Shown here one piece after another: positions 22,117-63,779 of a DNA stretch of 64,000 nt (position 1 is the stretch's first letter; every line of letters starts with the position of its first letter). Where the stretch lies: IMG/VR virus record IMGVR_UViG_3300028591_000121, positions 32,001 to 96,000 of that record; one strand, 5' to 3'. Under the pieces are notes generated by a model. It saw only the letters and a list, made by a program, of their open reading frames with translations. It did no database searches and was not told the origin of the DNA. A program made the position numbers and the translations under genes. This stretch comes from a virus. Lineage: Duplodnaviria > Caudoviricetes.

Positions 22117-22128
22117 GGAGAGATTTAT

Positions 22129-27371: not shown

Positions 27372-27394
27372 TTAATTTAGAACGGAGTATTGAA

Positions 27395-30610: not shown

Positions 30611-31024
30611 ATGAATAAGATTTCTTTTCCATACTTTGTAGATGTAGGGTATGGGAATACATTCAACACGGATTGTATTTAGGGTGTAATCAGAGTAGGC
30701 ACAAGAGGTGCAGATCGTACCCTTGACTGGGCTAAGAAGAACAGAAAAGTCTGGGATTGCCGTATGAATAAGACTCTGAACTCTATCTTCCTGCTGACAA
30801 ATGGAGATGTGGTTATGTCCCACTTGTCACTGGAGACTGCGAGAAAGCGTCTCAACTCCGGCATTCGACTTGCTGCCGACCCACCCGTCGAAGATAACGA
30901 GTGTCGATACACGGAAGTTATTATCCCAGAGACTCCGATTGTATTCCCTAAGCCAGCCCCTAAAGTTATTGACACTGAAGATATTTTTGATGAGGACGAT
31001 TTCGAGGAGAGTGAAAATGAATGA
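30611..31024 (+). CDS. RemA/DUF370-like regulator; one in-frame TAG (30680)
   Basis: FVDVGYGN...CI*GVI...AKKNRKVWD...SIFLLTNGDVVMS.LSLETARKRL aligns by eye with recalled RemA ([38 protein letters not shown]). Confidence 0.7.
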
Positions 31025-31698
31025 TTGAACTGCAGCCTTGTGCGAGGATTTAGTTTCCGACAACACCAGAACAAGGAGTGGAGATGTAGAAACTGTGTGA
31101 GTATGCGGCAAGAAATTGCTACAACACTACAGCTAAGATGACTGAGACGAGCTACCAAAAGATGATCCCCGCCTAGCTTAAAAAAGGACACGAGTCTCCG
31201 ATTGAACACTCGCTTATGATTGCGGAGATTGTTACTGGGCGAGATGTTATGGCTGAACTGACCAGGCATCGACTGAACAGCTTCTCAATCCGCAGTCAGA
31301 GATATGTAGATGAATGCAAGACTGGCGATATTGCATTCTGTGTTCCGCATTTTGAAAGGTACGGAGAAGAGAAAGCCCATGTCCTGTATAGTCTCTGGAA
31401 AGAAGATTGTTTAGCTTGTGAGGAAAGCTACAAGTATCTGAAGGAAGCAGGAGCGATTAATGAGGACGCACGTAAGGTTCTGATTAACTCTACTGCTACT
31501 CAGATCATAATGAGCGGTAACCTTAGATCCTGGAGACATGTATTTCAACTGCGGACAGCGAAGGATGTGTATCCTGAGTGCAGGATCGTTATGTGTGAGT
31601 TGCTCGAAAAAGCCAAGCTGATGTATCCCACAGTGTTTGACGATATTATTCCTGATGCAGCAGAGGAGAACGACGATGGCAATAGTAAAGAATCCTAA
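31021..31698 (+). CDS. thyX: FAD-dependent thymidylate synthase; in-frame TAGs at 31051, 31087, 31174
   Basis: AARNCY, GHESPIEH, ELTRHR-x7-SQRYV, EDARKVL, NLRSWRH; ATGA overlap with upstream gene; 225 aa on read-through. Confidence 0.93.
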
Positions 31699-31888
31699 CA
31701 CGGAATTCCGCAAAGGGCTGAAGAAGCGGATCAAGTCAAATGGCGGTTATTGCCTGAATAAAGAGAAAGGCAATAAGGATAACAAGTGTCCGTGTAAAGA
31801 GTTTAAAGAGACTGGGGAATGTGAATGCGGGATGTACGTTACAATCCCCGACGAACTGCTTGGAGAGGAGTTCACAGAAGATGATTAA
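31676..31888 (+). CDS. Ferredoxin-thioredoxin reductase catalytic chain-like small protein
   Basis: GGYC...KCPCKEF...GECECGMY. Confidence 0.65.
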   Translation: MAIVKNPNTEFRKGLKKRIKSNGGYCLNKEKGNKDNKCPCKEFKETGECECGMYVTIPDELLGEEFTEDD

Positions 31889-32396
31889 GTTTGAAAAGGT
31901 TTCATTTGAACAGTTTTGTCATGATTTTGTAGTGATGACTGGTGAGAATAACGAGTTTGATGAGCAGACTATCCGTGGGATTTATGATTCGATTCAGCTT
32001 CCCAAGCGCAGTACTTCTCAGTCTGCCGGATATGATTTCTTTACTCCGTATCTGTGTCAGATTCAGACAGGGTGTGACGCTCGTATTCTCACAGGCATTC
32101 GTGCCATTATGGATCCAGGTTATGTGCTGATGATTTATCCCCGCTCAAGTCTGGGGATTAAGAGCGGTGTTACTCTTGCAAATAGCACCGGGATTATCGA
32201 TGCCGACTATGCAAATGCTAAGAACGAAGGACACATCCACATTGTACTGACTGCGAAGGAGAGTCCAGTAAAGCACTTTGTTACTCTTGCTCAGGGTGAC
32301 AGGGTTGCCCAGGGTGTGTTCCTCAAGTTCTTCACTACCGACGATGATGCGGCTGATGGTGTGAGGACTGGTGGCATGGGTTCTACTGGTAAGTAA
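31881..32396 (+). CDS. dut: Trimeric dUTPase
   Basis: SAGYDF, PRSSLG, GIIDADY, DRVAQG, RTGGMGSTG. Confidence 0.95.
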   Translation: MIKFEKVSFEQFCHDFVVMTGENNEFDEQTIRGIYDSIQLPKRSTSQSAGYDFFTPYLCQIQTGCDARILTGIRAIMDPGYVLMIYPRSSLGIKSGVTLANSTGIIDADYANAKNEGHIHIVLTAKESPVKHFVTLAQGDRVAQGVFLKFFTTDDDAADGVRTGGMGSTGK

Positions 32397-32525
32397 GATG
32401 TATATCTGGCATAACACAAGAGGTAAAGCGGATCAGTACTTTATTTGCAAAGGACAGAGAGTACTGATCCAGATCCCTAAATGGCTTGGAATGTTATTAA
32501 TTAAATTATAAGAGGTGTTGTATTT

Positions 32526-33068
32526 ATGGCTGAAAACATGGATTTTGATCCTATGAGTATCTTTGGAACTATGTTCCTTGATGCGATTGTCAACTTGAAC
32601 GAAGATGAAATGGACAAGATGTCTGAGGTGTTCTCTTCCGCCGCTAATCGACTGGCACAGGAACAGAAGGAAGCCGAAGAAAAAGATAGTAATAAGGAAG
32701 AAGAACTTCCTTGGAACAAAAAGAAGTCGACCGATGAGAAGGAAGAAGAACTTCCTTTCTGTGATGGCGATTGTGCGTCCTGCGAAGATCTTCCTTCCTG
32801 CGATGGAGACGATGAGTCTTGCGATGAAGAGGACGAGGAAGAAGCTGAGTATCCTATGAAGGACTTTGACGTGGATAAGATTTATATGAGCAAGAACAAG
32901 ATGACTGTTGTTTGGATGGACGGCACGAAGACCCACGTTGTTAATACCTTCGAAGAGAAGATGACTCCTTGGACAGGGTTCTGTGCTGCTGTTGCTGAAC
33001 GTCTGTACGAGTCGAAGGAAACGGCTCTGATGCAGCTTGAGTATGGTCTGGATCGGGGTGCAGTGTAA
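32526..33068 (+). CDS. Acidic hypothetical protein with CDGDCASC repeat
   Basis: ORF with SD; TVVWMDGTKT motif. Confidence 0.65.
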   Translation: MAENMDFDPMSIFGTMFLDAIVNLNEDEMDKMSEVFSSAANRLAQEQKEAEEKDSNKEEELPWNKKKSTDEKEEELPFCDGDCASCEDLPSCDGDDESCDEEDEEEAEYPMKDFDVDKIYMSKNKMTVVWMDGTKTHVVNTFEEKMTPWTGFCAAVAERLYESKETALMQLEYGLDRGAV

Positions 33069-33271
33069 TGATCAAGGTTTATTCTACTGGGTGTCCGCAG
33101 TGTCTTCTTCTCGAAAAGATGTTGAAAGATAAACATGTAGAGTACGAGATCATTAGTGACGAGGAGAGCTTGATGAAGCTCTCCTCTCCTAGCGTCCCTC
33201 AGATGGATTTATGTGACGGAACTCCGATTATGTTGTTCCCCCAAGCTCTACAGTATGTAAGGGGGCTTTGA
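33068..33271 (+). CDS. Glutaredoxin/NrdH-like redoxin
   Basis: VYSTGCPQC, SVPQ; next to nrdD. Confidence 0.85.
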   Translation: MIKVYSTGCPQCLLLEKMLKDKHVEYEIISDEESLMKLSSPSVPQMDLCDGTPIMLFPQALQYVRGL

Positions 33272-33272
33272 T

Positions 33273-35201
33273 ATGGCTATTGCACCAAATTACGAATTAA
33301 GAAGAAAGAACATTAACTTTATCAACAAATTTATTGGTGCTCAGAATACCGCATCAGGTAGCGAAGTAGATGCTAACTCTAATGTCAGCGGAAAGAATAT
33401 CGCTACTATGTCCCCTGAAGTACACAAGAAAGAGAACATAAAAACCAACCGCCTGATGATGTACGATAAGCTGAAGGAAATGTACGGCGAGACTATTGCC
33501 GATAAGTACATTGAACAGCTTGAGAAGCATGAGATTTATACACACGACGAAAGTACTTTCCCTTTTGCGGGTGTTCCTTATTGTGCCTCCATTACTCTGT
33601 ATCCTTATCTGTTTGACGGAATGACAAAGCTCTCCGGCACAACGATTGCTCCGAAGAATCTTGACTCATTCTGCGGTGGGTTTGTAAATCTCGTATTCGC
33701 TGTGGCTGCACAACTTAAAGGTGCGGTTGCTACGCCTGAGTTCCTTTCGTATATGGATTACTTCCTGAGAAAGCAATACGGAGATGATTATTATCTGAGA
33801 GCAAACGACGTGGTTGATTTGTCTAACAGACATGCAACTATCGATATGGTCATCACAGATCATTTCCAACAAGTAGTGTACAGCATTAATCAGCCCGCTG
33901 CTGCTCGTGGTTCCCAGTCAGTTTTTTGGAACGTGGCATATTTCGACAAGTATTATTTTAATGCGCTTTTTGAAGACTTCGTTTTCCCTGACGGTACACC
34001 GATGCAGTGGGAATCCGTTAGTTGGTTGCAGAAGCGGTTTATGAAATGGTTTAACAGAGAGCGACTCAAAGAAGTCTTAACTTTCCCCGTGGAGACCTTA
34101 TCACTTCTTAATGATGGCAAGGATTTCATGGACAAAGAGTGGGCTGACTTTGCTGCCGAGATGTATGCGGAAGGACATAGTTTCTTCACATACACAAGTG
34201 ACAGTGTTGATTCTCTTGCAAGCTGTTGCCGTCTTCGTAACGGTATCACAGAGAACCAGTTCTCATATACTCTTGGTGCTGGCGGTATTTCTACTGGCAG
34301 TAAGTGCGTGATCACGATGAACCTGAACCGTCTTGTTCAGAATAGAATGTGTGAACTCATGGACTGCAAACCGGGTGAAGAAGATATTGGTGAAATCAGA
34401 AGCGATAGTAACTTTGAACAGAACCTTAATGATATCTCTTATGCGGTAACAGAACAGACAAAACTTATCCATATGTATCTTTCCGCATATAATGAGATTG
34501 TTTTGGATATGACCCGTAAACATATGATCTCTATTTATGACGCTGGGTTTATTAGTCCTGAGAAAGAATATCTTACTGTCGGGATTAATGGTGCGGTTGA
34601 AGGTGCTGAGTATCTGGGTATTGACATCAGCAATAACGAGAAGTACAAGGCTTACATTAATGCGATCCTTAAACCTATCTATGAACTAGATAAGAAGGAT
34701 AAAACCGCAGATAGAATGTTTAACTGTGAATTTGTGCCAGCGGAGAACCTTGGAGTTAAGAATGCCAAGTGGGATAAGGAAGATGGATATGAAGTGCCTC
34801 GTCCCTGTTACAACTCTTACTTCTATATTGTAGAAGATGAGAAGACGAACCCAATTGATAAGTTCAGGCTTCACGGCAGAGAATTTACTCAGTACCTTGA
34901 TGGCGGTTCTGCTCTGCACTGTAACCTCAGCGAACATTTGAGTAAAGCCCAGTATGAATTCCTGCTGAGATATGCCATTGTGACGGGTTGTAATTATTTT
35001 ACCTTCAATATCCCCAATACAATCTGTAATGACTGTGGTCATATTTCGAAGCACAAGCTTGAGAGATGTACCAAGTGTGGCTCTGAAAATCTTGACTACG
35101 CTACAAGAGTAATTGGATATCTTACCCGTATCTCAAAGTGGTCTGCCGATAGACAGATCGAACAGGCGAAACGCTACTATGCTCCGTCAAATTGTGTCTG
35201 A
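33273..35201 (+). CDS. nrdD: Anaerobic (class III) ribonucleoside-triphosphate reductase
   Basis: IYTHDE, PYCAS, LTFPV, SCCRL, VPAENL, CNDC/CTKC, TRVIGYL glycyl-radical motif. Confidence 0.95.
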   Translation: MAIAPNYELRRKNINFINKFIGAQNTASGSEVDANSNVSGKNIATMSPEVHKKENIKTNRLMMYDKLKEMYGETIADKYIEQLEKHEIYTHDESTFPFAGVPYCASITLYPYLFDGMTKLSGTTIAPKNLDSFCGGFVNLVFAVAAQLKGAVATPEFLSYMDYFLRKQYGDDYYLRANDVVDLSNRHATIDMVITDHFQQVVYSINQPAAARGSQSVFWNVAYFDKYYFNALFEDFVFPDGTPMQWESVSWLQKRFMKWFNRERLKEVLTFPVETLSLLNDGKDFMDKEWADFAAEMYAEGHSFFTYTSDSVDSLASCCRLRNGITENQFSYTLGAGGISTGSKCVITMNLNRLVQNRMCELMDCKPGEEDIGEIRSDSNFEQNLNDISYAVTEQTKLIHMYLSAYNEIVLDMTRKHMISIYDAGFISPEKEYLTVGINGAVEGAEYLGIDISNNEKYKAYINAILKPIYELDKKDKTADRMFNCEFVPAENLGVKNAKWDKEDGYEVPRPCYNSYFYIVEDEKTNPIDKFRLHGREFTQYLDGGSALHCNLSEHLSKAQYEFLLRYAIVTGCNYFTFNIPNTICNDCGHISKHKLERCTKCGSENLDYATRVIGYLTRISKWSADRQIEQAKRYYAPSNCV

Positions 35202-35222
35202 TAACCGTTAGAGGAGAATGTA

Positions 35223-35717
35223 ATGATTTATTGTGCCGGATATACTGTTTCATTTCAGGAAGTACCAGATGAGGTGAGTCTGGTACTCCTGATTTCTGAT
35301 TGTCAGCATCATTGCCCCGGTTGTCACTCACCAGAGCTTCAGAAGAAAACAGGGAAAGTACTTAGCGAAGAATATATTGACAAGCTTCTTTCTGAATATA
35401 AATCAGGCGTTAGCTGCGTCTGTTTCATGGGAGAAGGGGATAATCTTCCTGAGCTTTGTCGCTACGCTAGATACATTCATTCCGCTTACAATCTGAGGAC
35501 TTGTCTTTATACGGGGACTGATGAGGTGACATGTTTCAGTAAGTGGTTTGACGATATAAATGGAAGTCTTGATTATCTGAAATGCGGGGAATACATTGCC
35601 GATCTTGGTGGGTTGGACTCCCCTACTACGAACCAGAAAATGTATAAGCTTGAAAGATTTGATGGTGAGTTTCGGATGATGAATATTACTTCAAGATTTC
35701 TCAAGAATTACAATTGA
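35223..35717 (+). CDS. nrdG: Anaerobic RNR activating radical-SAM enzyme
   Basis: FQEVPDEVSL, CQHHCPGCHS, FMGEG, LYTG, TTNQK. Confidence 0.92.
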   Translation: MIYCAGYTVSFQEVPDEVSLVLLISDCQHHCPGCHSPELQKKTGKVLSEEYIDKLLSEYKSGVSCVCFMGEGDNLPELCRYARYIHSAYNLRTCLYTGTDEVTCFSKWFDDINGSLDYLKCGEYIADLGGLDSPTTNQKMYKLERFDGEFRMMNITSRFLKNYN

Positions 35718-35878
35718 GGAAACTTATGAATAATACACTTTGCATTAAATAGGGGTTTGTTATGTGGAGAAAGTTTTACGATGGATGGTTTGAATACTAC
35801 TACAATATTGAAACTGGTGAGCGTAAATTCAAACTTGAGCCTAGCGATAAATTGGTGGATTAAATAGGAGGATAAAAC

Positions 35879-36199
35879 ATGAAGGTTATGTTATCTCAGC
35901 CGATGGCTGGAAAGACAGATGAAGAAATCGTAGCAACCAGAGAACGAGCAATAAAAGTGCTTGAAGCGAAGGGCTATGAGGTTGTGAATACCCTGTTCAC
36001 GGATGAATGGTATTCCAATGAAAAGATGAAAGAGCGTGGCGTGGTTCAAATCCCGCTGTGTTTCCTTGCAAAGTCTCTTGAAAACATGAGCCTGTGCCAT
36101 GCAGTCTATTTCTGCAAGGGGTGGGAAAATGCCAGAGGATGTAAGATTGAGCATGATGCCGCTGTCGCATACGGGCTTGAAATCATTTATGAGGAATGA
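35879..36199 (+). CDS. DUF4406 / nucleoside deoxyribosyltransferase-like protein
   Basis: MLSQPMAG, GWENARGCKIEH. Confidence 0.75.
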   Translation: MKVMLSQPMAGKTDEEIVATRERAIKVLEAKGYEVVNTLFTDEWYSNEKMKERGVVQIPLCFLAKSLENMSLCHAVYFCKGWENARGCKIEHDAAVAYGLEIIYEE

Positions 36200-36696
36200 C
36201 ACATGGAAAACAATCTTGAATATTGCGAATGCGAATGTTGCGGAAGGCTTGTGATTTGTAGAAAAATAGATGGCAAAATGTTATGCGACCGATGTTTCAC
36301 AGAATACAAAGTTATTCACTGGAGCAAATCAAAGGACATGTATGACGAAACAAGAGGCTATTAATGAGATTGAAGAATATTTACGTGATGCGGATAAAGC
36401 AATCTCAGAAGACGAAGAGTATATCAGGGGCTGGAAGTCCGCTATGTTAACAGCCCTTGAGATTGTGTATAAATTACAAAGCACCGGGGATGAGGATGAA
36501 TGAGCCTTGACAAAGCTATTAAATACGGCAAGGAACACCGCAAACAGTACTACGGTAGTAAGGCTTTTGATAAGACTTGTCGGAATCACGGAAGCTGTAA
36601 GTGGTGCGAAATGAACAGAAAGCATAAATTCCGTGACAAACATCCGCAGGACAAATATCCGCAGAAAGAAAGTAAGTATGACATGAGGTGAGAAGA

Positions 36697-36948
36697 ATGA
36701 ATGTTGTTGTTATTACGTTGAAGGACGGTAAGGTTGATATTACCAAGGAAGAACTCGAAAAGATGTAGAATGATGCGTATGACAGGGGATATCGTAAAGC
36801 AAAGAATGAGGTATGGGCTATAACCTATCCTACATATCCTTACGTAAGTCCTACTTGTGGGGAGACTGTAACCAACATTACAGTAGACTCCGATAAGATT
36901 ACGCTCAACCCAGATTTGCAAACTCACTCTACTAAGATTACATGTTAA
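36697..36948 (+). CDS. Hypothetical phage protein; in-frame TAG at 36766
   Basis: DGKVDITKEELEKM*NDAYDRGY...; SD GAGGTG; fills a gap in the ORF track. Confidence 0.75.
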
Positions 36949-37118
36949 GGAGAAATGAGAATGGCGGATGAACAAGCATTAAAAGTTGCCAAGACAATAA
37001 GGACTCCGTACATGGAACACCCGGAGAGAGAACTCCGCTATCAACATCTGTGAAATCCATAGGAGTTGCGTGTGATTGAAACTGCACACTCCGCCATCTA
37101 TATTTAAAGGAGATAACT

Positions 37119-37454
37119 ATGAACGATAATATTCTTTAGGGCGTAATGCCCGACGCTCCCGTCGTAGAAAATGAACAGGGTGGCAAGCAGTCTGCTTCGC
37201 CGTATGCATTCGAATTGCTCCCGCCTTCTGCTCTTTTGGCGGCTGCCGAGGTTGCCAGACAGGGAGCAGATAAGTACGGTGAGACTTTAGAAAGTAGGAA
37301 CTATACAAAAATTCCCTACGAATCCCATCTCAACCATGCAATCGCCCACATCTATGCATATCTCGCAGGAGACAGAAGTGACGAACATCTTGCCCATGCT
37401 ATCGTAAGACTTATGTTTGCTTATGATACTCGTCCTGAGAAAGTTGGTCTATAA
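37119..37454 (+). CDS. dATP/dGTP diphosphohydrolase-domain (DUF5664-like) protein; in-frame TAG at 37137
   Basis: FELLPPSALL, GADKYG..RNY, HLNHAIAH, EHLAHA; SD AAAGGAG precedes ATG 37119. Confidence 0.72.
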
Positions 37455-37456
37455 GA

Positions 37457-38005
37457 ATGGATATGGAATAGACAACAGGACAAGTATCCGCATATGAGAA
37501 TGAGTCCCCAACCATCCTGCTTTTCTGTGCGGATTAGTCCCTGAGATGCCCAGGGTTTGCGTAGCTTGAGTTTAATAAGGAAACAAAAGAAGTAAAGCTA
37601 CTCCGCAAATCCAATGTAGATAATCATGGAGCGAGGAAAGCACACGGACAGATGCTGGCTGAGATAGCCTAGGAAATCAAGAGCTATCTCAAGTCCGCAG
37701 AAGGAATGGTACTAGTTAGAGAGCGGGGGTTCTACAGAACTCCGAATGAAACGATAGCTCTGGCTAAGGTCGCTGGGATTGCAGACCTTTATGCGTACAG
37801 TTATAAACAGGCAACCTTCGACGAGATCGCCCCGGTGTCCATCAAGAAGACAGTGACGGGCAACCATAAAGCAGACAAGGATGAGGTGGCTCGTTGTGTT
37901 GAAAGGTACGTTGGAGTACAGCAGTATAAGACCGATGATGAGTCTGATGCTGTAGCCGTGGGGATCGCTTGGCTGATCCAACAGGGATACCTAGAGAAAA
38001 TTTAA
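37457..38005 (+). CDS. ruvC: RuvC-like Holliday junction resolvase; in-frame TAGs at 37469, 37535, 37562, 37670
   Basis: LFCAD*SLRCPGFA (first catalytic Asp lies upstream of three TAGs), VRE, PVSIKKTVTGNHKADK, DDESDAVAVG. Confidence 0.85.
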
Positions 38006-38011
38006 TAGGGC

Positions 38012-38045
38012 GGTTAATTTCCCTAGAAAAAGGGAGCGTTATATA
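38012..38045 (+). promoter_or_regulatory. Phage-specific promoter motif, copy 3
   Basis: GGTTAA-tttccctagaaaaagggag-CGTTATATA. Confidence 0.7.
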
Positions 38046-38050
38046 TAGTG

Positions 38051-38078
38051 AGGAGCGAGTGAAAACCCGCTCCTTTTT
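38051..38078 (+). terminator. Intrinsic terminator-like hairpin
   Basis: AGGAGCG...CGCTCCT followed by T-tract. Confidence 0.7.
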
Positions 38079-38114
38079 CTTATCTAAAAACACGGGAGAA
38101 AGGGGGCTGCGTGG

Positions 38115-38324
38115 ATGACGAACATGGAAGCGTTCAAGCGACTGACGCTCGATACCGTTGACCCAGTGATCTTTATGGAATGGTAGTGTTCAGTACAGAA
38201 GTCCTGCGACGGATGCAAGTTCAAAGAACGTAAGCCCGAATGGTACACAGGGCCTTGCATCTGGTACTGGTAGGAACAGGAATTTGAAACAGGAGTTGAC
38301 GATCTTGAACGAACGGATGATTAA
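38115..38324 (+). CDS. Small Cys-containing phage protein; in-frame TAGs at 38184, 38271
   Basis: MTNMEAF...FMEW*CS..SCDGC...CIWYW*EQE matches the recalled MTN...EWLC...WL(Q/E)xE family. Confidence 0.78.
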
Positions 38325-39291: not shown

Positions 39292-39306
39292 AAAGGAAGT
39301 AAAAAG

Positions 39307-45512: not shown

Positions 45513-45866
45513 ATGAGATTAATTGATGCCGACAAATTGATGACGGATGTACTCTGTCTGACAAATACAGAAAGCAATTCCAGATTTGTCGAATAGCTGA
45601 CGAGTCTTATCGCAGACGCTCCGACTGTTACGCTTTATGATCGGAAGGAAGGAACATGGATTCTTGATCCAGACGGAATGGATTGGGGTATTCCAGGGTG
45701 GATTTGTTCAGTCTGCCGTAGTCGAAACGATGGGCTGCCGACCGGGGAAGATATTACTCCTGAAAACATTATGCGGTGGTCGGACAGTAAGTTCTGTCCT
45801 CACTGCGGAGCGAAAATGTTGAAGGGAGCATACAGGATTTATCCGCATGTAGACGGGGTGTTCTGA
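45513..45866 (+). CDS. MRLIDAD-family Zn-ribbon protein; in-frame TAG at 45594
   Basis: MRLIDADKL...FVE*LTSLIADAPTV...WICSVC...FCPHCGAKM; ATGA overlap with upstream gene. Confidence 0.8.
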
Positions 45867-48800: not shown

Positions 48801-50749
48801 TCACACTCTGGTTCTGATTTCGACCATGTGACTTACTTCTGCAAGGACTGCGGTGCTGTCTCACATTTTGCAGTCAATCATAAATTTCCTATCGATTCAA
48901 TTAGCGTTGAGTATCTTACGACTAAGAAACCGGGTGAAGAACACGATGACTGATGTTAGTAAGACAATCGCAGAGCTTGAAGGAATCGCTGATTATTTCT
49001 TCGACATTTATGCCAAAGATAGAAATAAGGAAGCGGAACGAAGAATGCTTACTGTTGACCGGGCAGTAAATATTATTCGGTCACAGAGAACCGCACTTAA
49101 TGAAATCGCAGACATTGTAAAGAAGGTTGACAAATAATGCCTAGGTTTATTCAGGTTAAAGAGAGGAATCAGAGTACTCCTACGTGGATTAATACGGATC
49201 AAATCTTGTACTTTTTCTATAACCCGCAATATGACAATACCAATATTTATGTCACCAATCCCGAAACTGAATTTGTTGTTGAAGGCGATATGACGGATGA
49301 AATCCTTGGGGTTAAGAAAGCCTGTTGGGTAAAGATGACTGGGATGATGCCGCCGGAGTATCATGGGCATTATGAGTGTAGTAAATGTGGATGGCATGGA
49401 AAGAACTTTGAGAAAGAGCTTGAATTTGATCACTGCCCAGGGTGCGGCGCAAAGATGAGGGAAACGATATAACAGATGATTGAGACATTGTGTATTGTTA
49501 TGTTGATCTTTGGACTGACTTGCATCAGTGTGTACTGTATACTCAGTCCTTTCTTCGAAGAATGAGGTAAAGAGATGGACACAAGAGATCTGATTGAGAT
49601 GTTGGAGACTTGCTCTGGTAAAACCGATGAGCGGGTTTGCAGAGAATGTCGGTATTCCGCAGAAGGTAAAGCAAACGGCGGGTCTTGTATAAGTAATCTG
49701 ATGCGACAGGCAGCGAACACGTTGCGAAGAGAGACTGGGTACATGAGGGTGTGAGAGTAATGAATAAATTAAACATGATCAAAGGTCTTACGGATGTACG
49801 AGGAAATGTTCCAGTTATTTGCTTGGATACTCAAAACAATATATATGAAATCGTTTCTCTCAAGCGCGTGGCTGGCTCTCAAGATGAAACAATGGCAATC
49901 CTCGCTTACATAAAGAAGGATGGTGAGGACAATGGAGTTTGTGAGAGCAATACAAGAGAATCCTTATGTGGCAACTGCGATCATGGGAATCCTTCTGGGT
50001 CTGGGATACTGGATTATTTGCTTGGCGTTCGATGAGGAGTAAAACATATGACAAGAGATAAGCTTACCGCTCAGGAAGTAATTAAGCTTGTGAGCAATAT
50101 AGTTGGCGAGGTCGAACCAGATGAAGACTGCGACCACGATGAGAACTCAAAGCGGTATGAAAACCTTTGCGTTATGATCAGGCTCACTGACTGGTGCATC
50201 GACAATATCATCAGGGCAACATGGGGTGGCAGTCTCGACATCAGTGAGCAGCGTATCAACGACGAAGCAGATAAAGCTTTGGAAATATGGTACAAAACAT
50301 TGCAAAAAGAGGTAGAGCTTAATGCCGTATATTAAAACGCCGGAAGGCGAAAAGTATGTCGATGACTTTATCAGTACAATAAAAGTTGGCGATAAGATTT
50401 ACGCATTGCAAGCCAGTATTGTTGAAGTCAAGGAAATTAAATGCAAGAACTGCGGTCACCCACTGAAGCTGGAGTATGGAGAAGGGACATGCGAGATGTG
50501 CGGCTCACATTACAGTACACATTTCGAAATTGTGCAATGTTGATCTTCGAAGAGAAATACGTCTACGGCGAAACGCCAACCAGGCAGCAATTAGAAGATG
50601 CGCTTCAGGTTCTGAAGTGCGAGAGGTACGCACGATGGCAGTCAATGATGACTGATCAGGAACGAGAAGAGATTGAACAAGCTCATTACTTGTGCATGTA
50701 TTTGCTTAGAAAAACTCTGACAGAATATTCCTGAACGGATAGATAAATA

Positions 50750-50857
50750 TATGCGGTGTTGGAAGAGGTAAACAAAAACAGAAACAGTTGAGATGGCGGG
50801 TTACCGACGGGGACTTGAGATTCCGTCTCCTATCAGGTGCAAATCCTGATCCGCATA
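50750..50857 (+). ncRNA. tRNA-like RNA A1
   Basis: TATGCGG/CCGCATA stem; D arm TTG-GAAGAGGTAAA-CAA; T arm ATCAGG-TGCAAAT-CCTGAT; no anticodon loop. Confidence 0.75.
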
Positions 50858-50962
50858 AGAATAACGGCTGCTTTCTTCGGAGAGCAGGAAGGATGAAAAC
50901 CACTTCCGTCGAGGTATCGGCAGCAGCAAACACTCATGCGTAGGTAAAGGCAAATACCAAAT

Positions 50963-51109
50963 TGTGTGGTGACGGAAGAGGTAAACGGGCTAGAGGGAGA
51001 TAGCCACGAAAGCGGAGTTAACGTTACCGCTTGAGAATAAGGACTAACGTCGTGCGACCCTACATCTGCGAAAAGGCTATCCTGTTAGGTGCAAATCCTA
51101 ACCCACACA
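50963..51109 (+). ncRNA. tRNA-like RNA A2
   Basis: TGTGTGG/CCACACA; D arm ACG-GAAGAGGTAAA-CGG; GATAGCC/GGCTATC stem; GTTAGG-TGCAAAT-CCTAAC. Confidence 0.75.
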
Positions 51110-52161: not shown

Positions 52162-52167
52162 GATTGT

Positions 52168-53142: not shown

Positions 53143-53436
53143 ATGAATCAGAAGAAAGAGAAGCGGACAGTCTCCGCTGTATAGAATGTCAGGCTGTCGA
53201 TGGATTTCTACAGTGAGGAAGCAAATGAGCAAACAATCTGCACTTATATTCAACAGCTTCTTGAAGAGTGTGCGGATAACGTCAAAGTATCTTTAGTAGA
53301 GGATGCCACAAGTACAACGAAGGGGGAATCGCCTTGTTTGTGGAGTGCAGAGAATGTATACACTATGCCTCATGTCCAGCCGGTTACAGTCACGGTAATG
53401 CTGCCTGTCTCACTCTGGCAGAGAAGCGAAAACTAA
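53143..53436 (+). CDS. Hypothetical protein; in-frame TAG at 53182
   Basis: ATGA overlap; VSAV*NVRLSMDF has alternating hydrophobic beta-strand pattern. Confidence 0.7.
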
Positions 53437-53471
53437 GAAGAAAAATATCGTTTGGGGATGTGTTTAAGTAT

Positions 53472-54035
53472 ATGGGAACAAGACATTAGATTGCTGTCCA
53501 GTATAAAGGACGTTATTGGGTTGCCCAGTATGGGCAGTGGGATGGATATCCCAGTGGACAGGGCATTGCAGTACTTGAGTTTCTGCGGGATCAGATGGAT
53601 GAGAAGATCTTTCTCAACAACTTGGTCAATGTCCGTGAGATGAACGACAACGAATACCGCACGTTGTTCTCGTTTACCGGGGACAGAGTCAACGCTTTAA
53701 GAGAAATCTTCCCTGAGTTTGATCGTGATACGAGCGCAGATATTCTTCCGATTATTCAGCGGGGCAACTGCTTCCGTATTTCTAATCAGCTTAGGTTTGC
53801 TGCCGACTCCCTGTTCTGTGAGTGGGCATATGTGATCGATTTTGATAAGCGGACATTTGAAGTCTATCAGGGATTTAATAAAGAACCGCTGACTCCAGAG
53901 GATAGGTTTTATGAACTGCGGGAACATGAAGAACTCCCCTACCACGGCGTTAAGCTTGCCAAGTCTTGGAGTCTTGACGAGTTGCCGACGAATGAAGAGT
54001 TCATTTCCGCACTTGAAAAAGAGGATGAAGAATGA
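53472..54035 (+). CDS. Conserved phage protein (MGTRxL...QWDGYP family); in-frame TAG at 53487
   Basis: MGTRH*IAVQYKGRYWVAQYGQWDGYPSGQG...DSLFCEWAYVIDFD. Confidence 0.88.
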
Positions 54036-57000: not shown

Positions 57001-57075
57001 GGAAGTCCGCATAGATGAAGAGACTGGGATGAAACATTACTACTGTAAGAGATGTGGAAAGGTACGGTGGAAATC

Positions 57076-57276
57076 ATGAGCAATAACAAAGGTGGAAGTA
57101 GTGCAGGAATGGGATAGGCTGATGTCCTGCTGATTATCTTTATTGTGTTAAAGCTTTGCGGAGTAATCAGTTGGTCTTGGGTATGGGTACTCAGTCCGCT
57201 GTGGATTACCGTAGGTATTGCGTTACTCGCTCTTGGTTGTGCATGTGTATGGGAGAAGTATTATGACAGTAAATGA
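57076..57276 (+). CDS. Small phage membrane protein; in-frame TAG at 57115
   Basis: GMG*ADVLLIIFIVLKLCGVISWSWVWVLSPLWI; ATGA overlap. Confidence 0.85.
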
Positions 57277-57481
57277 TGTGACCTTTGAAATCGACAAGGC
57301 TCGAATGTATGCAAAGTTTATCGATAGCTATATGGAAGATGTGAAGGATGAGCATATGTACGACGCATTCAAAGAGACGAGTGCTATCCTCACGAAGTAT
57401 GCGATGCTGCTTTCCAGTCTTCCTGTTAACTGTGACTTTAAATTCTAACTTTTTATCTTTATCTTAAAGCTGGTGAATAGT

Positions 57482-57985
57482 ATGAGACATAAGCGTAAGT
57501 ATATTAATCAGGGTGTCCGCAATTAGGTATTCAAGCGGTATGAGGGACACTGTGCCTACTGTGGATGTGTACTGAATAAGGATGAGATGGTCGTTGATCA
57601 CTTCTTCCCTGTGAGTAGATGGAAGCGTTCCCACAAGGAAGGAGATGTAGACGATGTGCTGAACCTGATGCCTTCCTGTAAGTCCTGTAATTATTGGAAG
57701 GGAGCTAAGTCTCCGGGCGGGTTCAAGGATTTCCTGAACAAGCAGTTTGATATCGTATATAAAGAGTCTGCGGGATTCCGTAATCTCCTGAGATATGGTC
57801 AGGTCTATCAGACTAACTCCCGCAGAGGAATTAAGTTCTATTATCAGAATAACTGTGAGTCTCTGGAATGGTGTGAGGAGACTGGATTCTCTCCTGAGAT
57901 TCAGCCCTGGTATAAAGACTGTGAGCCAGTTACGACTGATGCGAGATATGAAAAGAAAGAAGATGAGGACGTTGGGGAATCCTAA
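57482..57985 (+). CDS. HNH endonuclease; in-frame TAG at 57524
   Basis: VRN*VFKRYEGHCAYCG...VDHFFP...NLMPSCKSCNYWK. Confidence 0.88.
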
Positions 57986-58515
57986 ACCTATCCCGATCAC
58001 TGCTTGTCCGTTTTGCGGAAAAGAGTTTTCATCGGAAGACAGGATGGTGATTGCTGAAAAGCTCGTCGAAAAGGATGCAAATGGTAAGTATCTTTACCCT
58101 ACTTACCTTATTGTTTGTACGCATTGTCACGGAGACATGAGACTATCCCGCTACAGCCACTATTACGATGATGAGAGTGTGCCACCGACATGACGAACTA
58201 CGAATATATAATGGCGGGGCTTGACGATAGAAGACTGGCTGAACTGTTTAACGAAGGATGGAAAGGGTCGGAGTTTAAATCCAAAGTCTGGGATGCCTTC
58301 AATAAATGGACAGACAGTCTCCCCTATCATCAGGGGAATATCTATAATCCTCAGAGCGGACTCAATGGGCTTGATCCGAATCCTTTCGTCTTTAATAAGG
58401 TGTTTATTAAAAACTCTGATAATACACAGAGTTTTGGACGCAGTTTCTGCGTTGCTTTTCAGGACTGGTTGTTGTCCCAGTATGATCCTACTCAATGGGA
58501 ATGAGGTAAAAAAAT

Positions 58516-58725
58516 ATGATGTGGCTAGTGAAAATTACACGAAAGAATTCCGATCAAGTCCAGTTCGGGAATCTTCCCAACTGCCCCTACTCTGAAGCTA
58601 AGAAGTTTATCGAGCAAGCCAGGCAGAGCGATAGCGATATCGCTTCCGCAGATTAGTAGACTCCTGCTGTAGATGGGTCTGGTCAGTGGATTGAGATAGT
58701 TGAAATAGAAGGAGTAGTTATATGA
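58516..58725 (+). CDS. Hypothetical protein with tandem in-frame TAG TAG (58654-58659)
   Basis: SD GAGGT; IASAD**TPAVDGSGQWIEIVEIEGVVI; terminal TGA forms ATGA overlap with the next gene. Confidence 0.65.
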
Positions 58726-59879
58726 ATTGGGTAGCTTGTATTGTTTTGACTTTGGTGTTTCTTCTTTTGATTATAATCAGTTGGTGGTCAGGACATAACG
58801 AAGGGGTAAGAGAAGGAAGCCGTGAGCGTGATTGCGAATCAGCGACATGGGTTCGTATTCCGGGGCTGTCCTACAGAGAAGATGACGATACCGTACATAC
58901 GATATGTGAGTGTCCGAGATGTGGATTCAAACATGAGTTCATAGACGGGCTTGCTTACCAGTATAGGTATTGTCCGCAGTGCAGACTTAAATTGAACGGA
59001 GAAATAAAATGAGATACAGTACATTTCTGAAGAACCAAGAGACCGCTACTCATTATGCGAATCAGGCAAACTGCCGTAGATGTGCCTACGGAGAATGGGT
59101 CAGGACATCCGCTTTCTGTTCAGGCTTCGGGAGATCCAAGAAGATCCCGTACAAGAGTTGGGATACAGACAAAGTCGGTTACTGTAGTAAGTTTATTCCA
59201 AAGTCATCGAAAGAGGTGAAACAGGATGAAGCTACAGGTTGAATTTCAAGACTTGCGTAGAATGCTCAAAGAAAAATGCGAGGAAATTATCAGAGATAAA
59301 AAACTCGCATATGAGTTTTATTGTAGGATCTGCGAAATCGAAGAAGATGAAAGATTTGTTGTTGTTAAGGGACAGCCCAAGCAGGAGGCAAAACCGATGA
59401 CGGAATACGACGATGGATGGAATTGCCCTAGATGTGGATTAAAACTAATAGGAAAAACAGCAAGTGGATATCCGTGTGATGTGTTGGATTTACCAAATGA
59501 TGAAATTGTGAAGTATTGCCCAGTATGCGGACAGGCGGTGAAGTGGGATGAGACTGATTGACGCAGATGAACTTGAACAGAATATGTACGAGATGAGCGT
59601 GTACGCCGGGAACAACTACTATAAGGAAGCGGTTGCTTCTGCTGTAGCCGAGATTATTAACAACGCTCCGACTTATACGATTGAGCCGAGAGATAAAGAT
59701 AAGCTCCGCAGAGAAGTCGACCACGCCAAGATTCTGAATCAGGAGTACAAGGAACAAGTCAAGGCTGTTATCCGTGACTATATTACCTTCCTCGATCCTA
59801 CGACCGAAGAAAAAGAATATGAGACAGCGGAATGGATTCTGACTTTAATTGACGGTATCCCGGATTAACCATTGTATAT

Positions 59880-59921
59880 AACCTCTATGCGGCTATAATA
59901 AACCGTGTAGAGGTTCTTTTT
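59880..59921 (+). terminator. Terminator-like hairpin ending the long operon; loop contains TATAAT
   Basis: AACCTCTATGCGG-CTATAATAAA-CCGTGTAGAGGTT-CTTTTT. Confidence 0.65.
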
Positions 59922-60001
59922 GAAAGGGCTGATAACGTTTTATGAAACTTGAAAATTCTATATGGGTTCACGACTGCTGCTAGGATGAAGGGAGCAGTCC
60001 A

Positions 60002-61090
60002 ATGAAAAAGCGTCAGCGTTTCCACGTAACACTTATCAACGGAGAACAAGTCTGGATCACAGGCTACACAATCGACGAAGTATTTGATACCGCATTCAGG
60101 AAGTACGGGTATCTGTATCAGGATGTAATGGAGAAGCCCGCATCAAACGCCCCTACAATCGGCGAGTACATTAATAAGTGGCTCAATGAGTACCGCAGTA
60201 AGAAGATTGCGGGTAAGCGTTATATCAGTCTGAGTTCTATTATCAAGTCTCATATCGAACCCGCAATTGGAGATATGCACTTGGATGAGATGGACTCAGA
60301 TAAGGCAATGTGGTTTATTAATTCGTTAGAGGAATTGGAGAGTATTCAGTTCCTTGTCCTGTGGATTATGAAGAACTTGTATGAGTACGCAATTGAGGAT
60401 GGATATCTTAACAAGAATCCATTCAAGAGTTCCAAGATCTCCGTCACAAACCCGAATGCCAAGAGACGCTCGATGACTACAGAAGAAGTAGAAGATATGC
60501 TTAACAGAATTCCAGATCTTCCGCTGATGAAACAGTTGATAGTAGTTATCCCGCTATATACAGGCATGCGACTAGGAGAAGTCTTTGCTCTGGACTGGGA
60601 AGATATCGACTTTGACAAGAAGCTGATCCATGTAACGAAGACTCTGAGTCTTGACAAGGATAACACCCCGATTATTAAAGCTCCGAAGACAGATGCGGGT
60701 ATCAGGTATGTTCCTCTCCTGCCAGAACTTGAGGAGTATCTTCTGAAAGCTAGGCAACCGAGCGGAAGAGTGATCGTTTCCAAGAAGGGAAAACCTTACA
60801 ATTCTGGAGGAGCTACGGTCGAAGGGAACAGGACATTAAAGAAGCTCAACGTTCCGAAGGACATTACTTACCACTGCCTTCGTCATACCTTTGCTACGAT
60901 GATGGCAACACGTATTAATGCCAAGACTCTCCAGACAATTCTTGGTCATTCAGACTTCATGATCACGATGAATACCTACGTGGATACCACAAAAGAGCAG
61001 ACGGAAGACGTTGCAAAATTATGCGATAAACTCTATCAGAAAGTTGACACAAAATTGACAGAGAAAAGTTCTGAAAGCGTTGCGGTGTAA
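60002..61090 (+). CDS. int: Phage tyrosine integrase
   Basis: YTGMRLGEVFALDWEDIDF, PKTDAGIR, HCLRHTFAT, LGHSDFMITMNTY. Confidence 0.93.
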   Translation: MKKRQRFHVTLINGEQVWITGYTIDEVFDTAFRKYGYLYQDVMEKPASNAPTIGEYINKWLNEYRSKKIAGKRYISLSSIIKSHIEPAIGDMHLDEMDSDKAMWFINSLEELESIQFLVLWIMKNLYEYAIEDGYLNKNPFKSSKISVTNPNAKRRSMTTEEVEDMLNRIPDLPLMKQLIVVIPLYTGMRLGEVFALDWEDIDFDKKLIHVTKTLSLDKDNTPIIKAPKTDAGIRYVPLLPELEEYLLKARQPSGRVIVSKKGKPYNSGGATVEGNRTLKKLNVPKDITYHCLRHTFATMMATRINAKTLQTILGHSDFMITMNTYVDTTKEQTEDVAKLCDKLYQKVDTKLTEKSSESVAV

Positions 61091-61361
61091 GGAGTCCAGG
61101 CATAATTAATTAATATGCAATTGACATTTCGATGTCAACAACGAGATAAAAACGAGCCAGATCCCTTGTAAATAAACAAAGGTCTAAAACAGTGAATCTT
61201 CAATACACGAAAAGAACTTGAATAATTATGCATAATATGTGAATAAAACATAAGCAATAACCAGCATAAGTGAATCCATATAGGATAATTTCCACCAGCT
61301 CAAGAATCTTTAATTTATTTTTCAAGTGTCTACGCTTGGTCTGCTGAAAGTTATTCTAGTG

Positions 61362-61370
61362 TGATATAAT
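61362..61370 (+). promoter_or_regulatory. Extended -10 promoter (TGnTATAAT) for the RM operon
   Basis: TGATATAAT about 30 nt upstream of the methyltransferase start. Confidence 0.55.
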
Positions 61371-61401
61371 AGTTGCGAAACCGCAAGGAAGGAAACTAAG
61401 G

Positions 61402-62691
61402 ATGAGTGAGATAAGATTTATTGACTTGTTCGCTGGCATCGGGGGAATCCGTAAAGGCCTGGAACTGGCCTGTGAAGAGAGAGGGATCAAGACTCAGTGT
61501 GTATTCACGAGCGAGATCAAGCCCCATGCGATAGAGATTCTGAAACAGAACCACCCCGACGAAGAAATCCACGGAGATATTACTAAGATTTCTACGGATG
61601 AGATTCCGCAGTTTGATATTCTGCTTGGCGGGTTTCCGTGTCAGGCTTTCTCCGCTGCGGGTAAGAGACTTGGGTTCTACGATACCAGAGGTACTCTGTT
61701 CTTTGAAGTCGAACGTATTCTTGCTGAGAAGAAACCGTTCGGGTTTATCCTTGAGAACGTAGAGGGTCTCGTCAACCACGACAAAGAGAATCCAAAAGAC
61801 AAGATCGGACGTACACTGACAATTATTCTGGATCGACTCGTGAGTCTGGGATACAAGGTGAACTGGAAAGTTCTCAACGCCAAGGACTTTGGAGTTCCGC
61901 AGGACAGAAAGCGTATCTATATTATCGGAACTCTTAAAGAGACTCCAGATATGAGTCGGTTTCCGCATAAAGAAAAGTATGTACGGGATATTCTTGAACA
62001 GGGATTAGAGACGGAGACTAGTCCGTTTATTAATAAACTCCTCGCCCACTATAAACTCGAAGAACTTCCCGGAATGTCGATTAAAGACAAGCGTGGCGGA
62101 GATAATAATATCCACAGTTGGGATATCGGACTGAAGGGCGAAATCACGGAACGCCAGAGAACTCTCCTGAACATGATGATGACGGAGAGACGGAAGAAGA
62201 AGTGGGCAGAGATTTACGGGATCGACTGGATGGACGGTATGCCACTGACTCTGGGCATGATCAGGACTTTCTTTGATGCGGATGACTTGGAAGAGATGTT
62301 GGAAGATCTGGCTTCCAAGAAGTATGTCAGGAAGGAACACCCTAAAAAGAAAGTGGGACTCTTGCGAGTCCCAGATGAAGAGTTGCCTGTTGGCTATAAT
62401 ATTGTTGCGGGTAAGATGAGCTTTCAGGTGAGCAAAGTACTTGATCCTGATTCTATCTCTCCTACTCTGGTCGCTATGGATATGGAGCATCTGTATGTGA
62501 GAGACGGAGACGGGATTAGAAAGCTGAGTCTCAGAGAAGGACTCCGCCTGTTCGGATACCCAGAGGATTACAAGTTTGATATCGATAGAAACCTTGGATA
62601 TGATCTGCTTGGGAACACAGTCGTTGTTCCTGTAATCAAAGCTGTTGCGGGTAAAGTACTTGACATTTATCAAGGAGATAAATAGAAATGA
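61402..62691 (+). CDS. Type II C5 methyltransferase, M.NlaIV/NgoBV-like (ends 62685 if TAG is a stop)
   Basis: DLFAGIGG, GFPCQAFS, ENVEGL, PQDRKR, RKLSLREGLRLFGYP, LLGNTV; strong resemblance to recalled M.NlaIV; ends TAG-AAA-TGA. Confidence 0.92.
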
Positions 62692-63425
62692 TCAGGATGT
62701 CTGCACAGGAAGTATATGAAGCCCTGTTGAGTGAGGAACGGATTACAGAGATCGAAGGTCAGATAAGATTCTATCTGGGGACAGTAGATATAGTTGTCCG
62801 GCAGAGAGATGTAGTTGGCAATATAATTCAGGAGTGGCTACAGGGTTGGTTTGACACGCATGAGGTTTTATACTGTACGAATGACAACTCTCAGATGCCC
62901 CCGGATTTCTTTCTGAATCCGCAGAACAGAAAGACTGATATGTTGGAAGTCAAGGCGTTTAATATAGAAGCCTCTCCGGGATTTGATATTGCGGACTTCA
63001 ATATGTATCAGCAGGAGATCGTAGAGAAACCGTGGATGTTATATGTGGATTACCTGATCTTCGGGTATGAGATGATGGCAGACGGAACTGTTTTGATCAG
63101 AGACTTATGGCTGAAGAAAGTCTGGGAGATTACCAGACGAATGAAGGAGTGGCCTATTAATCTCCAGATCAAAGACAGAGTCGTACATAAGATTCGCCCA
63201 GGGGTTTTCTATAAGCGGATCGGATATCCTCCCTTCCAATGCCTTGAAGACTTTATCAGCGCAATCGAGGAAACCGTATATAAGAATCCAAAGACTCACG
63301 ATATAGCAGGACAGTGGCTCAACCAATTCCTTGGAAATTATGAGTACCATTACGGGGTTCGTCTGAATGTCCCAAGATGGAGAGACATAGCGGATACCTA
63401 CCAAGCCTTACCAAGGGGTATATAA
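62688..63425 (+). CDS. NgoBV/NlaIV-family type II restriction endonuclease (probably GGNNCC)
   Basis: VVGNIIQEWL, PPDFFL, LEVKAF, FDIADF, DYLIFGY, LKKVWEI; coupled to the methyltransferase. Confidence 0.85.
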   Translation: MIRMSAQEVYEALLSEERITEIEGQIRFYLGTVDIVVRQRDVVGNIIQEWLQGWFDTHEVLYCTNDNSQMPPDFFLNPQNRKTDMLEVKAFNIEASPGFDIADFNMYQQEIVEKPWMLYVDYLIFGYEMMADGTVLIRDLWLKKVWEITRRMKEWPINLQIKDRVVHKIRPGVFYKRIGYPPFQCLEDFISAIEETVYKNPKTHDIAGQWLNQFLGNYEYHYGVRLNVPRWRDIADTYQALPRGI

Positions 63426-63427
63426 AC

Positions 63428-63472
63428 AAAAAAATGGGGAGTAGACCAATTAAGATCTACTCCCCTAATTTT
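63428..63472. terminator. Bidirectional terminator between convergent RM and lysis genes
   Basis: A-tract, GGGGAGTAGA/TCTACTCCCC stem, T-rich tail. Confidence 0.85.
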
Positions 63473-63779
63473 ATTCTGCGGGTTTAATACCGGCTGCGAT
63501 CTGATCGATATCGAGTTGTTTCCATGCGGCTTGTAATGCGTTCATGACTTCCGCCGTGTTCACATTAAAACCTTTATTCTTCATAATCTCCAAAGCCTCC
63601 TTGAGCTTATCGCTTCCATGCCCACGCCCGTAAATAGCTTCGGCTGCCTACACTGCGTACTTAGCGACAGCCATAAGGTTGTTTTCCTTCAGCCACGGGA
63701 CAACATAACGCCGTAAAAGTTCCTCAAATAAAACTGCCTACAATGTAATTAGTGCAACTAACACAGGTGTCCAATTCAT
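63471..63779 (-). CDS. LL-H-family holin; in-frame TAGs at codons 14 and 44
   Basis: MNWTPVLVALITL*AVLFEELLRRYVVPWLK...YAV*AAEAIYGRGHGSDKLKEA...; SD GGGAG; 102 aa; absent from the ORF track. Confidence 0.85.

Follow-up and report, generated by a model that had tools for sequence, protein, structure and literature searches.

In-frame TAG codons in the window

The window analysed here is a 64,000-nucleotide (nt) stretch of DNA, bases 32001-96000 of a single virus contig of 119,416 bp (IMG/VR record IMGVR_UViG_3300028591_000121; Duplodnaviria, Caudoviricetes) whose completeness by CheckV is 100%. Its genes raise the question of how this phage reads the amber codon TAG, which stands in frame in genes that are otherwise intact. 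Comparison with related proteins, set out below, leads us to a reading to which we give a probability of roughly nine in ten: TAG would serve this phage as a seventh leucine codon, with TAA and TGA as its only stops and the other 61 codons standard. The genes and features of the window that bear on this reading are listed here by position in the window, with coordinates, strand, TAG positions and Pfam matches.

1543..30595 (+): early/replication block, free of TAG and needing no read-through, with open reading frames (ORFs) of primase-helicase size and of DnaE size
30611..31024 (+): RemA-like gene; TAG at 30680-30682 (residue 24); Pfam PF04025, E 1.1e-8, residues 9-81
31021..31698 (+): ThyX, flavin-dependent thymidylate synthase; TAG at 31051, 31087 and 31174 (residues 11, 23 and 52); Pfam PF02511, E 8.5e-40, residues 23-203
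36688..36948 (+): small hypothetical gene; TAG at 36766, frame open across it
37119..37454 (+): dATP/dGTP diphosphohydrolase N-domain protein; TAG at 37137 (residue 7); Pfam PF18909, E 4.9e-18
37457..38005 (+): RuvC-like Holliday junction resolvase; TAG at 37469, 37535, 37562 and 37670 (residues 5, 27, 36 and 72); Pfam PF02075, E 2.6e-11, residues 28-171
38124..38324 (+): small Cys-rich gene; TAG at 38184 and 38271 (EW-TAG-C and YW-TAG-EQE), frame open across both
45513..45866 (+): zinc-ribbon protein; TAG at 45594, open frame; zinc-ribbon Pfam matches weak, below cut-off
53143..53436 (+): hypothetical gene; TAG at 53182, open frame; no Pfam family match
53472..54035 (+): widespread conserved hypothetical protein (MGTRH-L-IAV); TAG at 53487; 3676 database homologues
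57052..57276 (+): small membrane protein; TAG at 57115, open frame; aligned column V2, S1, F1 in 4 relatives
57473..57985 (+): HNH endonuclease; TAG at 57524 (residue 18); Pfam PF01844, E 2.7e-6, residues 27-77
58516..58725 (+): small gene; tandem TAG TAG at 58654 and 58657; read-through gives an ATGA overlap with the next ATG at 58722
61402..62691 (+): C5 cytosine DNA methyltransferase with motifs FAGIGG, GFPCQAFS and ENV; TAG at 62683, two codons before TGA
63471..63788 (-): holin (Phage_holin_6_1); TAG at residues 17 and 47; Pfam PF09682, E 6e-6, residues 7-72
63781..64000 (-): ORF with which the dense late/lysis block begins; it extends past the window end

A preliminary description of the window, made from the sequence alone, had listed 22 in-frame TAGs in intact genes, and this observation is confirmed. 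All 20 plus-strand coordinates start a TAG triplet in a frame that is open from TAA/TGA to TAA/TGA, and the two sites in the minus-strand holin gene, for which the highest base of each codon had been given, are TAGs at 63738-63740 and 63648-63650. The ATGA overlaps that read-through was said to restore were recovered from the ORF coordinates at 31021-31024, where the TGA stop of the RemA-like gene overlaps the thyX ATG, at 58722-58725 and at 62688-62691. Pfam matches span TAGs in the RemA-like protein, in ThyX (residues 23 and 52 inside the match), in RuvC (residues 36 and 72 inside, residue 27 just before it) and in the holin, where the TAG at residue 17 falls within a hydrophobic segment; the HNH and dGTP_diPhyd_N matches lie downstream of the TAGs of their genes. 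The methyltransferase site at 62683 is ambiguous, since a true stop and a near-terminal leucine cannot be told apart there; with read-through, the stop forms the ATGA with the next ATG at 62688. Further candidate TAGs of the window, at 45847, 46339, 50226, 55232 and 59942, sit in N-terminal extensions that are doubtful, and a 109-amino-acid (aa) ORF at 50692-51021, which holds 4 TAGs when these are taken as sense, is probably not a gene and was left out of the gene list.

The distribution of TAG along the contig is uneven. The early block contains long ORFs that are intact under table 11, at 27395-30595 (1066 aa) and 23292-25151 (619 aa), and the minus-strand ORF at 63781..64000 is 98 aa long in the genome and has 6 TAGs, of which the window holds 5. 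A TAG-sense gene model of the whole contig holds ~155 in-frame TAGs, densest in minus-strand virion and lysis genes outside the window, with 5.2 TAGs per 1000 codons in the minus-strand late arms versus 1.0 in the plus-strand middle. The minus-strand genes outside the window include a 3783-aa ORF with 27 TAGs, a 1655-aa tail protein with 10, a portal-size protein with 8 and TerL with 3. We also observed that in-frame TAGs across the contig favor the first third of their genes, with 75 of the 155 in the first three deciles, a skew that may partly reflect over-long N-terminal extensions in our crude gene model. If this N-terminal bias is real, unsuppressed products would stay short.

Under table 11, the TAG-bearing genes are simply broken, as would be expected if the TAGs were true stops within pseudogenes or split genes, or if they had arisen by assembly or base-calling error. 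We regard this as very improbable. The essential TerL and portal genes, together with the tail protein with its ten TAGs, would all be dead, a matching tRNA with anticodon CUA, tRNA(CUA), is encoded by the phage, and the same pattern recurs in dozens of related phages. The behavior of gene ends points the same way: in agreement with the preliminary description, which had seen genes end in TAA or TGA, the 159 complete genes of the TAG-sense model end in TAA (90) or TGA (69). When table 11 is applied instead, TAG closes 27 of the 143 coding-strand ORFs; 23 of these run on for at least 160 codons and only 4 reach TAA or TGA within 30 codons, so that the 23 are fragments of larger genes and at most four genes could truly stop at TAG.

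Homology across the stop codons separates TAG from TAA and TGA. On the coding strand of this genome, to which the bridging control was limited (table-11 ORFs of relatives are confounded by antisense and off-frame ORFs), 43 distinct TAGs lie within high-scoring segment pairs versus 9 TGA and 5 TAA, and these few TGA and TAA cases are weakly supported or at gene ends. In relatives, the bridged codons number 563 TAG versus 29 TGA and 15 TAA. The TAGs are also kept in independent assemblies from other samples: those at 30680, 31051, 31087 and 31174 are retained in a Logan contig (L194, 92-94% nt identity) and in an ENA scaffold (L195, 86% nt identity), and the portal TAGs are present in three other metagenome contigs, at 8 of 8 sites in L005, at 4 of 4 of those covered in the partial L007 contig and at 6 of 8 in the 93%-identical L006, where TTG stands in place of one TAG and TTT in place of another. 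Because they are kept in independent assemblies, the TAGs are, on this evidence, not assembly errors. Coding density measured by greedy ORF tilings did not discriminate between codes, with 90.8, 89.0 and 89.8% for TAG-, TGA- and TAA-sense versus 85.2%; any freed stop lengthens ORFs, and homology was therefore used instead.

The amino acid inserted at TAG

To identify the residue that corresponds to TAG, we used a Codetta-like comparison in which the predicted proteins, with TAG written as X, were searched with tblastn against 62, later 144, related viral loci, and the aligned columns were tabulated per codon; several hundred database homologues were also used for the TAG columns. Against the related viral loci, TAG columns contain L at 0.52, M at 0.06, I at 0.06 and A at 0.05, a profile that matches that of the six leucine codons, whose columns contain L at 0.38-0.52. 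By comparison, CAA and CAG columns contain Q at 0.26-0.30, with E and K, and isoleucine-codon columns contain I at 0.43, V at 0.18 and L at 0.12. For every one of the 61 sense codons, ATA included, the standard residue comes out on top. Treating each of 38 TAG sites as one observation, the likelihood relative to leucine is -13.6 nats for methionine, -21.9 for isoleucine, -25.9 for valine and -57.4 for glutamine, and leucine wins 2000 of 2000 bootstraps over these sites. The leucine that the preliminary description had read from family patterns is thus the residue that these alignments return opposite TAG, and its interpretation is supported by the comparative data.

The relatives themselves behave in the same way. 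At the TAG columns, they draw on the six leucine codons in the usual proportions, with TAG itself making up 16%, so that TAG acts there as one more codon for leucine. Of the 144 related loci, 65 have in-frame TAGs and the others have none, and at 389 of the 564 TAG sites in relatives the plurality residue of the column is L. Phages carrying each of the forms of tRNA(CUA) described below, the long-arm leucine type included, place TAG on leucine columns, and relatives binned in metagenome-assembled genomes (MAGs) also set TAG opposite L or I of this phage.

Individual proteins give the clearest view of these columns. Among 120 database homologues of TerL, the columns at its three TAG sites hold L in 116, L in 84 with M in 34, and A in 70 with V in 40, and TerL proteins that are 81% identical to that of this phage have L at all three sites; in 150 portal representatives, L is the most frequent residue at 5 of the 8 sites. 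Within the window, the family patterns given in the preliminary description were borne out at the sites where homologues could be aligned: L stands in 115 of 118 homologues at site 53487 (pattern MGTR[HN]L), in 109 of 114 at ThyX site 31174 (PA-TAG-LKKGHES) and in 13 of 14 at RuvC residue 27, site 37535 (D-TAG-SL), where there is one F plus three TAG in relatives, and the RemA-like residue-24 column (CI-TAG-GVI) is Ile in solved RemA (7bm2/7bme). Of the other ThyX sites, 31087 has L in 73 of 93 homologues and 31051 has I 26 and L 25, and in solved ThyX structures residue 52 (site 31174) is I, I or C. The sites that had been called neutral are variable columns, namely RuvC residues 36 and 72 (37562 and 37670) and the dGTPase site 37137, which holds T, F, L and others (n=8-9). 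Solved RuvC structures align to the C-terminal part only and are uninformative at the TAG sites. The remaining window sites have few or no homologues: the HNH site 57524 is V in a single aligned relative, and for the gene at 36688..36948 the Pfam search gave no family match and the related-loci alignment no homologue column.

Glutamine is the residue that would be expected from precedent, since TAG as glutamine (genetic code 15) is used by crAss-like and Lak phages, is assumed by prodigal-gv-type gene callers and is the sole TAG reassignment reported for phages whose code differs from that of the host, in Borges et al. (bioRxiv 10.1101/2021.08.26.457843) and in Peters et al. (PMC9523058). Public proteins of close relatives also show Q at the TAG sites of this phage. 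These Q residues come only from proteins that are 80-97% identical to those of this phage (P0001, P0271 and P0391-P0393), the three Q at site 53487 being found in 80%-identical proteins, and they are table-15 translations of TAG: the L195 gene behind P0271 (L195:1216-1887) gives the protein used as query when its TAG is translated as Q. On the evidence, the Q in P0001, P0271 and P0391-P0393 should be L, and public collections would thus already hold glutamine where the evidence says leucine. Homologues with sense codons have L, Q occurs in 0-3 of ~100 sequences per site, all or nearly all of them table-15 proteins, and glutamine is the worst of the residues compared above. In addition, the phage tRNA(CUA) has A73 and G1-U72 rather than the G73 of the host tRNA-Gln type, and A73 is found in all 24 distinct tRNA(CUA) sequences of relatives. 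With these data a glutamine code can hardly be maintained.

A second alternative is that TAG specifies another hydrophobic residue, methionine or isoleucine, or a mixture, by way of a suppressor tRNA of non-leucine identity. Several TAG columns do hold I, M or V, the phage tRNA(CUA) is of class I shape with a similarity to tRNA-Leu only marginally above that to tRNA-Gly and tRNA-Thr, and Kienbeck et al. 2024, whose predicted isotypes for phage tRNA-Sup genes were Gln, Trp, Ile and Tyr but not Leu, assigned 'Ile' to 10% of them. The likelihoods given above, however, disfavor both residues, with leucine ahead in every bootstrap; true isoleucine codons have a distinct column profile in which I and V come before L, and phages with a clear long-arm suppressor of tRNA-Leu type show the same column pattern as this one. 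Moreover, isoleucyl- and methionyl-tRNA synthetases read the anticodon, so a tRNA with anticodon CUA should not be charged by either. We therefore consider this alternative improbable, though less so than glutamine.

Leucine thus remains the preferred reading of TAG, and as read from these comparisons, the content of the code is that of NCBI table 16, here in a bacterial virus.

The phage tRNA(CUA) and a proposed mechanism

Four tRNA genes were found in the contig with ARAGORN and Rfam, all outside the window, and only one of them has the anticodon CUA. It lies on the minus strand at contig 29149-29224, 2.8 kb before the window, with an Rfam score of 54.8 bits. This tRNA is 76 nt long and has G1-U72, G3-C70, discriminator A73, a 7-nt variable loop and A15 with U before the T stem, without G3-U70. 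Its D arm, GCAG-AACGGCCUA-UGC, has the length and pattern seen in the tRNA-Leu of a related host-type genome, GCGG-AAUGGCAGA-CGC. Whole-length similarity gave no isotype for the short tRNA(CUA), the top matches being Lys, Leu and Gly at similar scores. The label 'tRNA-Pyl' that ARAGORN gives it is the one that program uses for any CUA anticodon, and pyrrolysine was rejected, the columns being those of leucine. A tRNA-Leu(CUA) with a long variable arm had been expected in the preliminary description; a tRNA(CUA) is indeed present in the genome, but the long arm is absent here and occurs instead in relatives.

The tRNA(CUA) genes of relatives comprise these 24 sequences, which are 76-92 nt long and share A73; those of 84-89 nt are class II and nearest to tRNA-Leu, and in none of the tRNA comparisons was Gln the nearest type. 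Two relatives (L030 and L060) have sense tRNA-Leu genes (UAA, CAA) of 75-76 nt that lack the long variable arm as well, so the suppressor is not alone in having lost it. A different case is the 88-nt tRNA(CUA) of L063 and L040, which is closest to phage tRNA-Tyr(GUA) and not to tRNA-Leu. The TAGs of L063 nonetheless stand on leucine columns at 12 of 14 sites; either tRNA similarity misleads in these phages, or a Tyr-type body has acquired leucine identity.

Leucyl-tRNA synthetase (LeuRS), SerRS and AlaRS do not read the anticodon. Serine identity is conferred by G73 together with the long arm, alanine identity by G3-U70, and leucine identity by A73 together with D-arm and tertiary features rather than by the long arm. 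Under these identity rules, a CUA tRNA of the shape found in this phage would most plausibly be a LeuRS substrate.

In the mechanism that we propose, the phage would make this one tRNA(CUA), the host LeuRS, blind to the anticodon, would charge it with leucine, and the charged tRNA would compete with host release factor 1 (RF1) at UAG. Early and replication genes (window 1.5-30.6 kb), which are without TAG, would be translatable by the unmodified host, and the genes after dnaE (RemA-like, thyX, ruvC and others), above all the minus-strand virion and lysis genes, would yield full-length products only with the suppressor tRNA. The charging by LeuRS, the competition with RF1 and any timing or regulatory role are steps that we infer. 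A profile search of the phage for release factor (PF00472) and class Ia synthetase (PF00133) genes found none.

Several observations weigh against a leucine code. By similarity alone, the phage tRNA(CUA) is weakly leucine-like: when the anticodon is masked and the variable region left out, the top identity, 0.68, is that to tRNA-Leu(CAA), tied with tRNA-Gly, and the long variable arm that bacterial tRNA-Leu typically has is missing. Roughly a third of the TAGs fall on columns that are variable or polar, among them those of portal residues 32 and 60 and of RuvC residues 36 and 72, although L is the plurality at 63% of TAG sites versus 56% of ordinary leucine-codon sites. The TAG at 62683 and three other near-terminal TAGs may still serve as stops, and the column comparison would miss a low level of termination at TAG or of insertion of another residue.

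The surroundings of the tRNA genes hold two further features. In contig 24.0-30.5 kb, which contains all four tRNA genes, no theta/HDV-like (hepatitis delta virus-like) ribozyme or other Rfam family beyond the tRNAs was found, with the exception of one borderline group I intron match that adjoins the tRNA cluster at contig 27044-27233 (L002:9044-9233, minus strand; 49.9 bits for a gathering score of 50, E 1.1e-10). At contig 26864-26952 (L002:8865-8952, minus strand), there is an 89-nt tRNA with anticodon UAU, which reads ATA; it has a 17-20-nt extra arm, yet a 4-bp D stem of class I type. ATA columns are still Ile-like (I 0.36, n=28), and the tRNA(UAU) of relatives is ordinary, at 74-76 nt.

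Relatives, known codes and consequences

Among cultured phages, those closest in TerL are Clostridium phage c-st at 32% identity and SPbeta, phi3T and the Goe phages at 27%. Like these large temperate Firmicutes siphoviruses of the SPbeta and c-st type, which have genomes of 120-130 kb, our phage has a genome of about this size and a tail protein with a YOMG N-terminal domain, but the distance to them is very large, and recoding is not known from any of them. Clostridia MAGs obtained from the gut of sheep, rabbit and human include related contigs, and three related contigs are classed as proviruses by IMG/VR. One related prophage lies in a 300-kb contig (C59) of a Eubacteriales MAG, where a TerL homologue and an 86-nt Leu-like tRNA(CUA) are accompanied by bacterial genes for lacto-N-biose phosphorylase, a full chromosomal DnaE, an AraC regulator and a GH5 cellulase; the same MAG has an intact prfA, the gene for RF1 (515 bits). 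Because a related prophage resides in a Eubacteriales genome with intact prfA, standard-code Clostridia are the likely hosts, as judged from relatives.

The accessory genes of the window are not common to the TerL relatives, and a search for the gene at 53472 in 31 large related phage records gave one match only. The dnaE gene, a single 1066-aa ORF in the window, is present in L194 (L194:4901-9380, 92-94% identical) as two ORFs, of 570 and 530 aa, that are separated by a DUF2726 ORF, which could reflect an insertion, an intein or intron, or a contig break. Four relatives (L013, L015, L016 and L060) have a 76-nt tRNA(CUA) yet only 0-1 in-frame TAG in 1.7-4.2 k aligned codons, and these may represent a stage before or after recoding.

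Taking the relatives together, we think it likely that TAG has become a further leucine codon throughout a clade of temperate phages, large and widespread, whose genomes measure roughly 90-126 kb and whose hosts are Clostridia of gut and rumen. No earlier case would then exist, in viruses or in any bacterial translation system, of a stop codon reassigned to leucine. The change would be driven by phage tRNA(CUA) genes that started as ordinary long-arm tRNA-Leu and diversified until some were class I in shape and had no variable arm.

Stop-codon recoding in phages driven by suppressor tRNAs is already known, and what would be new here is leucine in place of glutamine. Described phage recoding comprises TAG as Gln and TGA as Trp, or as Gly where the host does so too. 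In Borges et al. (bioRxiv 10.1101/2021.08.26.457843), TAG 'aligned best with glutamine' in most cases, and only TAG to Q and TGA to W were found where the codes of phage and host differ, which these authors explained by properties of GlnRS and TrpRS that make them unusually easy to hijack. Code-15 gut phages include crAss-like, Lak, Garnet, Amethyst, Topaz, Agate and phAss-1 phages (bioRxiv 10.1101/2021.08.26.457843; Peters et al., PMC9523058; PMC10607447), and table 15 is used throughout phAss-1, jumbo-phage and annotation papers. Our literature search found no description of a TAG=Leu phage, and phrase searches for TAG or UAG to leucine returned only mitochondria, ciliates and unrelated matches; most subscription papers lay outside the search, so a prior report is possible.

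The resemblance to the code-15 gut phages is close in other respects. In both, TAG is concentrated in structural and lysis genes and absent, or nearly so, from early and replication genes, a tRNA(CUA) is phage-encoded, and recoded and non-recoded members occur in one clade, with prophages among them. In contrast to the code-15 phages, the residue here would be leucine and the exploited synthetase LeuRS, and the profile search found no RF2 gene in this phage.

UAG is read as leucine under NCBI codes 16 and 22 (chlorophycean and Scenedesmus mitochondria, and also chytrid mitochondria) and in phyllopharyngean ciliates (PMC6551751, PMC6131824, PMC11687900). As in codes 16 and 22, TAG in this phage would be leucine with TAA a stop, and the other codons are standard, as in table 16. 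Those codes and that of the ciliates are organellar or nuclear and fixed genome-wide with their own translation system, whereas this virus would impose its meaning of TAG on a bacterial host that keeps RF1, and in part of its own genes only.

A parallel in charging comes from the laboratory. In Escherichia coli supP (leuX), a tRNA-Leu(CAA) mutated to CUA inserts leucine at UAG since LeuRS ignores the anticodon. This suppressor is a laboratory allele, belongs to a host gene and retains the long variable arm in its normal form. The phage tRNA(CUA), by contrast, is phage-borne, natural, conserved across the clade and shortened to a 7-nt variable loop.

If the leucine reading is true, phages would be able to hijack LeuRS in addition to GlnRS and TrpRS, and the rule for hijacking would be wider than proposed: any synthetase that ignores the anticodon would be usable, LeuRS being the obvious one. 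Public pipelines based on table 15 would then put glutamine at thousands of leucine positions in the proteins of this clade, and gene callers limited to table 15 would misplace it in the conserved core and in catalytic neighborhoods as well, degrading homology searches, structure prediction and the expression of such genes. The natural series of tRNA(CUA) molecules, from 76 to 92 nt, would be suited to studies of what LeuRS requires and could be a source of amber suppressors for Firmicutes. Finally, with recoded and non-recoded relatives side by side, some of them with the tRNA and almost no TAG, the clade would offer material on how a change of code starts.

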